56,522 nt of DNA from Escherichia phage PDP46. Every line of letters begins with the position of its first letter. Within the stretch, counting starts at the first letter, position 1. This document shows positions 41,457 to 42,452 of this stretch, one piece after another. The translations under genes were made by a program, and so were the position numbers. A model generated the notes under the pieces. It worked only from the letters and a program-made list of their open reading frames with translations. It had not been told where the DNA came from and searched no databases. Location of the stretch: the sequence record PQ783785; one strand, given 5' to 3'.

Positions 41457-42452
41457 TCAGTAACCGTTACCGTTGAGAAAATTCGGGGCCGGGGTGGTCA
41501 TTACCATATAACCATTAGCGATCAGTTGTTCATCGTTCCAACCTTGCGTAATAAACTGTTCGTAAGTAGCACCACCTGCTTTTTCAGTCATTACCTTCAC
41601 AGGTGCTGCCGCTGGTGTAGGCGCTGCTACAGGTGCTGCCGCTGGTGTAGGCGCTGCTACAGGTGCTGCCGCTGGTGTAGGCGCTGCTACAGGTGCTGCC
41701 GCTGGTGTAGGCGCTGCTACAGGCGCTGGTGTAGGCGCTGCTACAGGTGCTGCCGCTGGTGTAGGCGCTGCTATAGGTGCTGCCGCTGGTGTAGGCGCTG
41801 CTACAGGTGCTGCCGCTGGTGTAGGCGCTGCTACAGGTGCTGCCGCTGGTGTTACGCCGATCGGACGTGCACCTTCAGGCATTGCAGGAGCAGCACCGAA
41901 CACAGATGCAGGAGCCGGACCAGAAATAATTTCTTCACCTGCATAAAGCAATTGCGCCATTTCCATGTTGATATACACACCAGCCTGGTTACCTGTACGA
42001 CCGTTTGCAACAGATGATCCGCTGATACGGTAGTAATAACCTTTTTTCGCCAGATTTTTATCAATAACTGGCTGGTACGCTGCGTTATAAACCGGACACG
42101 CGTCAATAGCCACGTTGCGAGTAAAACCAATTACCCAGTGACCAGCATAACCAGTTTTACTCGCATGTTTCGGATCGTCACCGTTAATAATTTTCCATGC
42201 GAAAGTAGGTTGTTGTGGTTCACCGTTTACATAGTGCGAGTTAGCCGCTCGCATGATGGCCTGGAATACCGCACCCAGTTCACCTTGTTCTTCCCACCAG
42301 TTCGCCGCTGTTTTAGGAAACGCCAGACCAACCCACCAGTTATGTTTTTCAGGTGCTAACGGTTTATTTTCGTGGTCATGGGTGTTGATATCGAAAAAAG
42401 AACCGCCAACCAGACGACCAACCGGAGTTACAAAAGATTCTTTCTGTGCCAT
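41457..42452 (-). CDS. Hypothetical protein with (PTPAAAPVAA)n linker, possible ssDNA-binding or annealing protein
   Basis: 331 aa; globular N-terminal ~200 aa, ~90-aa perfect decapeptide repeat, short C-terminal domain; sits between nuclease and polymerase. Confidence 0.4.
   Translation of the reverse strand: MAQKESFVTPVGRLVGGSFFDINTHDHENKPLAPEKHNWWVGLAFPKTAANWWEEQGELGAVFQAIMRAANSHYVNGEPQQPTFAWKIINGDDPKHASKTGYAGHWVIGFTRNVAIDACPVYNAAYQPVIDKNLAKKGYYYRISGSSVANGRTGNQAGVYINMEMAQLLYAGEEIISGPAPASVFGAAPAMPEGARPIGVTPAAAPVAAPTPAAAPVAAPTPAAAPIAAPTPAAAPVAAPTPAPVAAPTPAAAPVAAPTPAAAPVAAPTPAAAPVAAPTPAAAPVKVMTEKAGGATYEQFITQGWNDEQLIANGYMVMTTPAPNFLNGNGY
41601..41852 (-). repeat. 30-bp in-frame tandem repeat x~8.5 (AGGTGCTGCCGCTGGTGTAGGCGCTGCTAC)
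   Basis: Nearly perfect head-to-tail copies, one 24-bp variant; no spacers. Confidence 0.85.

Follow-up and report, generated by a model that had tools for sequence, protein, structure and literature searches.

In-frame coding minisatellites of variable copy number in a 9NA/Sasha-type siphophage, including a predicted Pro/Ala linker in its T7-type SSB

In-frame coding VNTRs, or minisatellites, are known from bacteria and phages and are used for MLVA typing. The closest relatives of the arrays described here are found in two sister phages of Salmonella, Sasha and Sergei, whose records carry repeat features that reportedly stem from the annotation by Zeng et al. 2019. [quoted passage not shown] A literature search on phage coding tandem repeats returned no phage-specific treatment; the nearest paper concerns Borg elements, in which rapidly evolving, recently formed perfect repeats occur within ORFs (Schoelmerich et al. 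2023, PMC9879509).

The C-terminal regions of several SSBs have likewise been described. In E. coli SSB, a disordered linker of 56 residues precedes an acidic tip (PMC7145534). T7-type SSBs make partner contacts through the C-terminal tail, and in the tail of Enc34 ORF6, 16 of 29 residues are acidic (PMC5686142).

The DNA that we analysed (hereafter the window, 56,522 nt) comes from a virulent Sashavirus/Nonanavirus siphophage of the 9NA/Sasha type and contains four in-frame repeat arrays, one each in four genes (Table 1). An earlier note on this DNA had claimed perfect or near-perfect in-frame tandem repeats in four unrelated genes, and a tandem-repeat finder (TRF) recovers all four: at 41599-41852 (period 30, 8.7 copies, 93% matches, score 459), 55515-55632 (period 21, 5.6 copies, 100% matches), 17768-17840 (period 21, 3.5 copies, 96% matches) and 4627-4809 (period 9/12/30, about 15 copies, just 78-82% matches). 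Their in-frame translations are (PTPAAAPVAA)n in the SSB, (EAPVARV)n in the 55.5-kb protein, (EPVTTAV)n in the 17.8-kb protein and an AAR/AAY/AAD region in the AAX protein. The unit lengths of 30, 21, 21 and 9 bp are multiples of three, and the reading frame is open through all four arrays. Profile comparison finds no family common to the four host proteins, in agreement with the claim that the genes are unrelated. The wording "perfect" holds for the 55.5-kb array only, whereas the AAX array is degenerate. Similarly, the recent expansion that had been proposed fits the three Pro-rich arrays, in which units are identical or nearly so, but not the AAX stretch, a degenerate Ala-rich region of predicted helical structure.

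Table 1. Coordinates of the repeat arrays, their host genes and the spurious ORFs over them in the window
Feature	Coordinates	Strand	Details and basis
Host gene of AAX region, phrog_21347	4590..5243	-	Alternative start M48 at 5102
Degenerate GCN-GCN-NNN region, 9-bp based, AAR/AAY/AAD	4627..4809	-	TRF, 78-82% matches
Spurious ORF over AAX array	4607-4819	-	70 aa
Host gene of 17.8-kb array, small accessory gene	17592..17960	+	Start 17592 agrees with annotated orthologs
21-bp minisatellite, unit GTTGAACCGGTAACGACTGCT = VEPVTTA, 3.5 copies	17768..17840	+	TRF
Spurious ORFs over 17.8-kb array	17666-17845 and 17670-17891	-	ORF list
SSB gene, 331 aa, T7-gp2.5-type (presumed)	41457..42452	-	phrog_7011, Foldseek, Sasha ortholog
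C-terminal region, SSB residues 285-331	41460..41600	-	AF2 pLDDT 81-93
30-bp coding minisatellite, unit ACACCAGCGGCAGCACCTGTAGCAGCGCCT = TPAAAPVAAP	41601..41852	-	By codons; SSB residues 201-284
Predicted OB-fold core, SSB residues 1-190	41883..42452	-	AF2 pLDDT mostly >90
Spurious ORF, antisense, wholly within SSB gene	41526..42017	+	163 aa; open because repeat is stop-free
Host gene of 55.5-kb array, 265 aa, phrog_25538	55390..56187	-	Divergent from terS
Perfect 21-bp minisatellite, unit GAGGCACCTGTAGCACGAGTG = EAPVARV, 5.6 copies	55515..55632	-	TRF, unit maps
Spurious ORF over 55.5-kb array	55463-55738	+	91 aa

As a control for chance, the window was shuffled 100 times in 3-mer blocks and 100 times by mononucleotides. 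At a TRF score threshold of at least 100, none of the 200 shuffled windows contains an array (top score 72), compared with four in the real window. Since no shuffle yields a comparable array, a chance origin is excluded. Like coding minisatellites, the arrays are thus highly identical direct repeats in head-to-tail order that random sequence does not produce.

The arrays resemble described coding VNTRs in their head-to-tail identical units, unit lengths divisible by three, single-unit ladders and conserved flanks. Unlike the VNTRs of bacterial surface proteins, they lie in replication and accessory genes of a virulent phage. Compared with Sasha and Sergei, the SSB array has the same 30-bp unit, the unit of the 55.5-kb array differs from that of Sergei by one to two bases, and the AAX arrays have only the 9-bp GCN pattern in common; copy numbers differ throughout, and the 17.8-kb array is unmarked in Sergei. 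The repeats are real but ordinary, three of the four having already been annotated in sister-phage records. The Borg arrays are alike in belonging to a mobile genome, in having partial end units and in encoding mostly intrinsically disordered regions (PMC9879509). They are pervasive, however, with A-enriched units that often lie in genes for extracellular or membrane proteins (PMC9879509), whereas this phage has four arrays of GC-rich units in genes for cytoplasmic proteins.

Orthologous arrays are present in all seven full genomes that were compared, with conserved flanks and differing copy numbers; a collection of proteins on contigs served as the wider set. The SSB array has 8.7 copies in the window, 9.7 in both Bas82 and AVIO78A, about 5.7 in Sasha, 4.0 in PJ16, 3.7 in Sergei, 2.2 in BDX09P1 and 1.9 in 536P12, a span of about 2 to 10 taken from public assemblies, many of them short-read, so that absolute values are uncertain. 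Its length is 254 bp in the window, 171 bp in Sasha and 111 bp in Sergei, and the corresponding SSB alleles comprise 263, 273, 293 and 333 aa in the collection, 283 aa in Sergei and 303 aa in Sasha. For the 55.5-kb array, copy number ranges from about 1.6 to 9.6 overall and from 2.6 to 9.6 among the sequenced phages (118 bp in the window versus 201 bp in Sergei), and the protein alleles of 237, 244, 251 and 258 aa in the collection, together with the 265-aa protein of the window, follow exact 7-aa steps, each allele of this 21-bp ladder being found on 3-19 independent contigs. The ladders of both loci proceed in exact unit steps, with each allele on several independent contigs. The 17.8-kb array has three copies (3.5) in the window, BDX09P1 and 536P12 and two (2.3) in PJ16, Bas82 and AVIO78A, and its host gene has no counterpart in Sergei; several relatives lack the genes that carry two of the arrays. 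Subject to the reliability of the assemblies, copy number is thus polymorphic between conserved flanks, as in VNTRs. The variation between isolates that the earlier note had predicted is found in almost every relative, and the pattern that would have spoken against it, identical copy numbers with divergent units, is reversed: units are identical or nearly so and their numbers differ.

The comparison of Sergei with Solent isolates this effect. These genomes have one mismatch in 14 kb, and their indels of 30, 147 and 102 bp occur only in the three arrays that both have, summing to -75 bp against a difference in genome length of -73 bp. Nearly identical isolates differ in length essentially only at the arrays, which are for this reason useful as strain markers but also a hazard for annotation and for quality control of therapeutic phages. 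Assemblies of phages in this group break or collapse at the arrays, which also generate spurious ORFs. Such antisense or alternate-frame ORFs, which the earlier note had pointed out, exist over all four arrays.

The order of unit variants within arrays is specific to each genome. The SSB array of the window reads AABACAAAD, comprising the 30-bp unit in six identical copies together with a V->I variant, a unit of 24 bp and a partial one of 18 bp, while the arrays of AVIO78A and PJ16 read AAEEEAEEED and AAFA, respectively. Whole arrays are also filled by unit variants private to one genome, such as GAG-GCA, confined to the window, ..GCG for Sergei, TCA for AVIO78A and ACA for 536P12. The fixation of private variants throughout whole arrays indicates concerted evolution, or homogenisation within the array. 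Unit variants comprise about 3 synonymous and at least 7 non-synonymous changes, a ratio close to the neutral expectation, and unit sequence is therefore only weakly constrained.

The host of the 30-bp array matches phrog_7011 with an E value of 2.8e-100, and its Sasha ortholog gp63 is annotated in GenBank as a Gp2.5-like SSB. Cluster mates bear the NCBI name "DUF2815 family protein", and Pfam PF10991 (Enc34_ssDNA-bd) scores 25 bits, slightly below its 26-bit cut-off. With the AF2 model as query, Foldseek matched DUF2815 proteins, Enc34 ORF6 and T7 gp2.5 at E values from 8e-9 to 3e-6. Matches in the PDB (4klk, 4jg2, 5odj/k/l and 1je5; target TM-score 0.54-0.74) involve only residues 1-190. The model thus contains a predicted modified OB-fold core like that of solved T7-type SSBs, and the gene product is presumably a T7 gp2.5-type ssDNA-binding protein with annealing activity.

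Beyond the core, AF2 assigns a pLDDT of 41-49 across residues 201-280. Disorder prediction had been proposed as a check, and disorder is what is predicted for the main array. In the model, the array forms a disordered Pro/Ala linker between the OB-fold core and a small folded C-terminal module. Low-complexity matches to the linker include 2-oxoacid dehydrogenase E2 chains, whose Ala/Pro-rich inter-domain linkers match it in composition and likewise act as an extended tether that connects small domains; this resemblance is compositional, with no homology, and the E2 linkers are without perfect repeats at the DNA level.

The C-terminal module (MTEKAGGATYEQFITQGWNDEQLIANGYM) spans about 30-35 aa with a predicted strand-helix-helix-strand arrangement (pLDDT 81-93) and is made of two 10-residue G-x-T-x-E-Q-hydrophobic-I-A repeats. 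The protein terminates in the motif PAPNFLNGNGY, the family form of which is PxPxFLxGxGY. Conserved across the SSB family, the module occurs in 192 cluster representatives with one to three copies per protein, often two or three, and also in DUF669 SSB-like proteins and a DUF6378 protein. No Pfam family matches it at E<=1, and a profile search against the PDB matched no solved structure significantly over any single stretch. When weak matches are summed, the 10-residue repeats of IcmE/DotG appear at an E value of 0.003, which we regard as a hint only.

Like E. coli SSB, T7 gp2.5 and Enc34 ORF6 (PMC7145534, PMC5686142), the window SSB consists of a core followed by a flexible C-terminal extension with a putative partner-contact element. 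It differs in its variable-length Pro/Ala minisatellite linker, in its predicted folded end module and in having no long acidic unstructured C-terminal tail, with about 2 acidic residues among the last 29 compared with 16 of 29 in Enc34 ORF6. As this C-terminus is non-acidic, it resembles the gp2.5 tail in architecture only. We suggest tentatively that the protein might represent an undescribed T7-type architecture, in which a minisatellite Pro/Ala tether, one to three modules and PxPxFLxGxGY replace the acidic tail; the module could then be a new domain for recruiting replisome partners, on a tether of evolvable length. In any case, the array draws attention to a C-terminal module in T7-type SSBs for which there is neither a Pfam family nor a solved structure.

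Where the core motif and the module could both be located in a homolog, 32-154 aa separate them, with Pro and Ala together making up a fraction of 0.48-0.73. Strong periodicity of the linker is confined to the 9NA-like clade, where self-match reaches 0.6-0.8 in the longer arrays, and four different unit types in the family encode the same Pro/Ala composition. The SSB family thus keeps the composition of the linker and not its sequence. The array thus offers an example of disordered phage-protein linkers apparently renewed by slippage with composition alone conserved, and does not overturn current understanding.

Taken together, we consider it likely that the arrays are coding minisatellites, or in-frame VNTRs, driven by slippage or recombination, and that the SSB array is a drifting disordered tether. 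Most likely, replication or recombination pairs identical units of 21 or 30 bp out of register, and since these lengths are divisible by three, the frame survives the gain or loss of whole units. Gain and loss proceed at a higher rate than point substitution. The three Pro-rich arrays lie at junctions between conserved protein blocks and code for low-complexity spacers, of which the SSB linker would tether the folded module and the PxPxFLxGxGY motif to the ssDNA-binding core, these C-terminal elements being presumed docking sites for replication or recombination partners. A linker of about 20 to about 96 residues seems to be tolerated, which would leave copy number to drift near-neutrally while Pro/Ala composition is kept. 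Hairpins as the driver of slippage are rejected, since the strands of the SSB and 55.5-kb arrays fold worse than dinucleotide shuffles (z of +1.7 and +4.5).

A different account would have the hypervariability itself under selection, as at contingency-like loci, with linker length tuning SSB cooperativity or replisome coupling to particular hosts, or permitting escape from defence. Arrays do persist at identical junctions in phages of Salmonella, E. coli and Klebsiella, where they have been re-created with new unit types. The disordered linker of E. coli SSB is reportedly required for one cooperative ssDNA-binding mode (bioRxiv 10.1101/2022.01.17.476650), and phage SSBs are sensed by Retron-Eco8 (PMC13402713). 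We nonetheless find this account unlikely, given that copy numbers at the three loci are uncorrelated and do not follow the host, with 1.9 to 9.7 SSB units among E. coli phages alone, and that unit variants look neutral. Moreover, Retron-Eco8 activation is unaffected by deletion of the T7 SSB C-tail (PMC13402713), which leaves immune evasion through the SSB tail unsupported.

Short-read assemblers collapse repeats or resolve them arbitrarily, and the differences could on this basis be mostly artefacts, with isolates having similar true copy numbers. At 254 bp, the SSB array exceeds typical 150-nt reads, and assemblies do fail in it: three IMG/VR contigs of 58-61 kb and one of 8.3 kb stop inside the array, one of these four (L013) is fused to downstream sequence copied in inverted orientation, and several "partial" DUF2815 proteins lie at the ends of 56-57 kb contigs from Salmonella and E. 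coli assemblies. Part of the apparent variation could therefore reflect assembly collapse. As an explanation for most of it, however, artefact is quite improbable, because the genome-specific interspersion patterns would not arise by collapse, the 21-bp ladder advances in single-unit steps with each allele seen on independent contigs, and the shortest arrays (54-118 bp) fit within single reads yet differ. Furthermore, phage 9NA, which was Sanger-sequenced with 660-nt reads (PMC4153490), has a 204-bp array.

It is highly doubtful that the arrays are cis-acting DNA, either origin iterons or ParB-like or small-terminase binding sites, with incidental translation. The repeat periods, 21 and 30 bp, come close to integral helical turns, the 12-mer GCACCTGTAGCA is shared by the SSB and 55.5-kb units and found nowhere else in the window, the 55.5-kb gene adjoins an operator-like motif cluster and terS, and lambda-type origins offer the precedent of lying in the linker-coding part of the initiator gene (lambda ori in gene O). 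Against this, copy number varies from about 2 to about 10, the 55.5-kb array is wholly absent from one homolog, two array host genes are missing in several relatives, the DNA of the SSB unit is entirely different between clades while amino-acid composition is kept, units have no dyad symmetry and their strands fold worse than shuffles, and no marked AT-rich unwinding stretch lies beside the arrays (GC 0.38-0.60 around the 55.5-kb array). The iteron, origin or parS reading is thus rejected, neither the sequence nor the number of repeats being conserved among relatives.

The minisatellite interpretation extends to the remaining Pro-rich hosts. Relative to P0075, a homolog with 43% identity, the 55.5-kb array forms one clean 42-aa gap between two conserved blocks and is therefore dispensable. 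The 12-nt core common to the SSB and 55.5-kb units is left unexplained by the minisatellite model. For the three non-SSB host genes, searches of Pfam (E<=10) and NCBIfam (E<=1) returned noise only.

The AAX protein stands apart. Its AF2 model (pLDDT 87.4, pTM 0.83) has eleven helices, with the AAX region included among them at residues 94-113, 118-133 and 140-153 (pLDDT 64-87); this region thus appears to form helices of an Imm5-like helical protein rather than a linker. No Pfam profile matches the protein itself above threshold (best DUF6931, E 0.59), and Foldseek with the model gave nothing below E 1 and no significant PDB neighbour. The homologs P0170, P0177, P0178 and P0187 pass the Pfam thresholds for Imm5_like / DUF6931, so that membership is transitive only, and the sequences suggest a distant relative of Imm5-like/DUF6931 helical proteins. 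It resembles these in being all-alpha, with a C-terminal half that is Ala-rich and repeated, and differs in that the phage is virulent and shows no evident toxin partner or immunity function. The AAX region is hypervariable among 322 homologs, and presumably evolves through slippage plus point mutation.

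Tandem Repeats Finder (TRF), together with translation, confirms that four genes of the window carry in-frame tandem arrays, as an earlier note had claimed; four arrays reach a TRF score of at least 100 in the real window, versus none in 200 shuffled windows. The description of these arrays as perfect or near-perfect holds only in part, since only the array of the 55.5-kb gene is perfect, whereas the AAX region is degenerate. At all four loci, stop-free units keep open spurious ORFs, antisense or in an alternate frame, as had also been proposed. By contrast, a diverged repeat elsewhere in the window, an old duplication, does not vary: its copy number is equal in the window and in Sergei, Bas82 and AVIO78A.

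Arrays and other features of the window (repeat periods and matches from TRF)
Feature	Position	Period and copies	Matches	Remark
SSB array (gene 41457..42452, minus)	41599-41852	30 bp x8.7	93%	in frame, (PTPAAAPVAA)n
55.5-kb array (gene 55390..56187, minus)	55515-55632	21 bp x5.6	100%	in frame, (EAPVARV)n
17.8-kb array (gene 17592..17960, plus)	17768-17840	21 bp x3.5	96%	in frame, (EPVTTAV)n
AAX region (gene 4590..5243, minus)	4627-4809	9/12/30 bp	78-82%	in frame, AAR/AAY/AAD stretch
Diverged repeat	43903-43954	27 bp x1.9	76%
Shared 12-mer	41625-41840, 55534-55629			minus strand
SSB C-terminal module	41460-41600			residues 285-331
N-terminal domain of 17.8-kb product	17592-17800			~60 aa
Ortholog of Bas82_0021	12148-12783			module remnant
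AT-rich intergenic region	17223-17561			5' of 17.8-kb gene
Short tandem repeats in that region	17327-47, 17406-32, 17439-59
Dyad-motif cluster	56242-56399, 156-166			between 55.5-kb gene and terS
Low-GC stretch	56400-56522			GC 0.24

Arrays extracted from seven full genomes and 13 IMG/VR loci bear out the proposed copy-number variation between isolates. [quoted passage not shown] Unit maps, in which letters denote unit variants, read AABACAAAD (window), A9D, AAEEEAEEED, A5D, AAFA, AAAD, GAD and HAD. The order of variants is specific to each genome and the majority of units are byte-identical, which, together with the differing copy numbers, is the opposite of the identical copy numbers with divergent units that the note had named as its refuting case. 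Unit counts in the genomes compared range from 2.6 to 9.6 for the 55.5-kb array and are either 3.5 or 2.3 for the 17.8-kb array. A 15-billion-protein collection holds 237-, 244-, 251- and 258-aa alleles of the 55.5-kb gene product, each on several independent contigs, which with the 265 aa of the window differ by exact 7-aa steps. SSB lengths are 263, 273, 287, 293, 297 and 333 aa in that collection and 283, 303, 331 and 343 aa in sequenced phages. The sharpest test is the comparison of Sergei with Solent, both from Texas cattle feedlots and isolated on one host serovar. Across 14 kb a single mismatch separates them, besides indels of 30 bp in the SSB array and 147 bp in the 55.5-kb-type array; around gp17, the AAX array has a further indel of 102 bp. 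The three array indels total −75 bp, versus a genome length difference of −73 bp.

Three IMG/VR contigs of 58-61 kb and one of 8.3 kb terminate within the SSB array, one of them being chimeric there, and so do several DUF2815 proteins marked “partial” from contigs of 56-57 kb. Any one copy number read from a short-read assembly is therefore not reliable down to the single unit. We argue that the polymorphism itself is real, because it includes single-unit ladders and genome-specific interspersion, and because arrays that fit within one read also vary. In the chimeric contig (L013, IMGVR_UViG_3300014770_000037), the SSB array is fused at the contig end to an inverted copy of downstream coding sequence, a junction that is an assembly chimera.

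The 55.5-kb array evolves in concert. A variant unit private to one genome occupies the entire array (for example GAG-GCA in the window, TCA in AVIO78A, ACA in 536P12 and, as the last codon, GCG in Sergei), and therefore whole-array turnover outpaces substitution in these 90-97%-identical genomes. Variant positions within units comprise ∼3 synonymous versus at least 7 non-synonymous changes, near the neutral expectation, which indicates weak constraint on unit sequence. One IMG/VR locus (L014, IMGVR_UViG_3300030464_000003) carries a hybrid SSB array of three type-1 units followed by four 9NA-type units, which suggests an inter-lineage recombination joint inside the array. Every unit of the SSB and 55.5-kb arrays contains the 12-mer GCACCTGTAGCA, encoding Ala-Pro-Val-Ala (13 matches versus 0.17 expected; absent elsewhere in the window), and the 9NA-type SSB unit retains the core CCTGTAGC. 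Identical APVA codons in both arrays have a chance of ∼0.009 given phage codon use; the two arrays could share a common origin, or the 12-mer could be a coincidence between Ala/Pro/Val-rich linkers.

The best-supported reading is that these are coding minisatellites changing by slippage or recombination. Whole units would be gained or lost through slipped-strand mispairing or recombination between identical units, with the frame kept because units are multiples of three, and array length would drift inside wide functional limits. The phage's own annealing protein and exonuclease may contribute. Hairpin-assisted slippage is unsupported, as the array strands fold worse than shuffles. The arrays are unlikely to act in cis as iterons, parS or pac, since copy number is not conserved, unit DNA is swapped between clades, and arrays or their host genes are missing from relatives. 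Selection of the variation for tuning or immune evasion is a less probable alternative that finds no support, and Retron-Eco8 senses T7 SSB independently of its tail (PMC13402713). The interpretation in the earlier note, recent expansion with copy-number variation between isolates, is supported.

The SSB matches phrog_7011 (Gp2.5-like SSB and annealing protein; E 3e-100). In an AF2 model built from 31 homologs, the core (residues 1-190) has pLDDT mostly >90, and Foldseek groups it with DUF2815 proteins, Enc34 ORF6 and T7 gp2.5. The array coincides with a predicted disordered stretch (pLDDT 41-49), in answer to the disorder prediction that had been proposed as a check, and residues 281-320 are modeled as a small strand-helix-helix-strand module (pLDDT 81-93). 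Most of 69 homologs (to ∼30% identity) have the core, a Pro/Ala-rich region, and then the module MTxKAGGATYEQFxAQGWxDEQLxAxGYM. Where both core motif and module were located, the intervening region is 32-154 aa long, and Pro and Ala together make up a fraction of 0.48-0.73 of it. It is periodic only in the 9NA-like clade, in which at least four unit types share one composition (TPAAAPVAAP, TPAPVAAPVA, APAPTAAPVA and an 18-aa unit). From this layout and the several unit types of like composition, we infer an old linker under selection for its composition, in which perfect repetition is recent and recurs.

In characterised T7-type SSBs, an acidic unstructured C-terminal tail touches polymerase and helicase (PMC5686142). 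In contrast, the window SSB has a non-acidic C-terminus, with the folded module in place of that tail. The module consists of two 10-residue repeats (GATYEQFIxQ and GWxDEQLIAN); it belongs to no Pfam family, and the PDB contains no relative of it. It occurs in 192 cluster representatives, often as two or three copies joined by Pro/Ala linkers, with 2-3 tandem copies in other T7-type SSBs, and behind Pro/Ala linkers in DUF669 proteins. It also lies within Bas82_0021, a DUF6378 protein (Bas82 locus L023, 9503-10243), whose window ortholog retains only a degenerate remnant, NDDKLAIHGYSIRTND.

The 55.5-kb gene belongs to phrog_25538. A 43%-identical homolog aligns with the whole array as one clean 42-aa gap between two conserved blocks, so that the array is a dispensable insertion at a junction. 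The AAX gene family includes at least 322 proteins, among which 96-98%-identical N-terminal domains are joined to completely different Ala-rich regions of ∼40-90 aa that all finish in INKLLVKLFTE; distant members exceed the Pfam Imm5_like and DUF6931 thresholds. The AAX protein is modeled with pLDDT 87 and pTM 0.83 (AF2) and its AAX part as three helices, a predicted structured helical repeat rather than a linker. The small accessory gene at 17.8 kb lacks a homolog in Sergei. Its product has an N-terminal domain resembling one present three times in Bas82_0047 (‘endonuclease’; L023 22791-23342) and twice in PJ16_055 (L002 26882-27223), both of which are inserted beside the tape-measure gene and are absent from the window.

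By megablast against the phage collection, 41000-43000 and 1-25000 of the window match 9NA-like siphophages. The top relatives, at 90-98% identity, are Escherichia phage PJ16, Sashavirus 536P12 and BDX09P1, Bas82, AVIO78A, and Salmonella phages Sasha, Sergei and Solent; 9NA and several Klebsiella phages are ∼80% identical. A length of 56.5 kb, terS near the start and the gene order of the group make the window look like a complete genome of such a phage. The Sasha record carries a “direct tandem repeat region” feature within gp63 (Gp2.5-like SSB), and the Sergei record has three, in gp17, gp73 (SSB) and gp91; between them, the two records cover orthologs of three of the four window loci. In this phage group the repeats are thus nothing new: they have been annotated before, and their mechanism is ordinary. 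The one by-product of slight novelty is the C-terminus of the SSB family, which is modular and non-acidic. Contigs of 53-58 kb of this phage type are present in many genome assemblies of Salmonella (especially serovar Anatum) and E. coli (proteins P0075, P0099, P0346, P0348, P0350 and P0351), suggesting carrier-state phage or contamination of bacterial sequencing projects. The SSB is labelled ‘DUF2815 family protein’ there, and contigs that stop within the array often leave it partial.

In the intergenic region between the 55.5-kb gene and terS, the dyad-symmetric motif ATGCAC-AAC-GTGCAT (core CACAACGTGCA) is clustered as three exact copies, found nowhere else, and four with 1-2 mismatches. 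The low-GC stretch follows, and relatives have a 31-bp repeat at the cluster position. The cluster looks like a set of putative operator, origin or pac-related sites. Upstream of the 17.8-kb gene, the AT-rich intergenic region may have a regulatory or origin role where the head-gene block begins; GC is 0.36-0.39 across 14-18 kb, where cumulative GC skew reaches its minimum.
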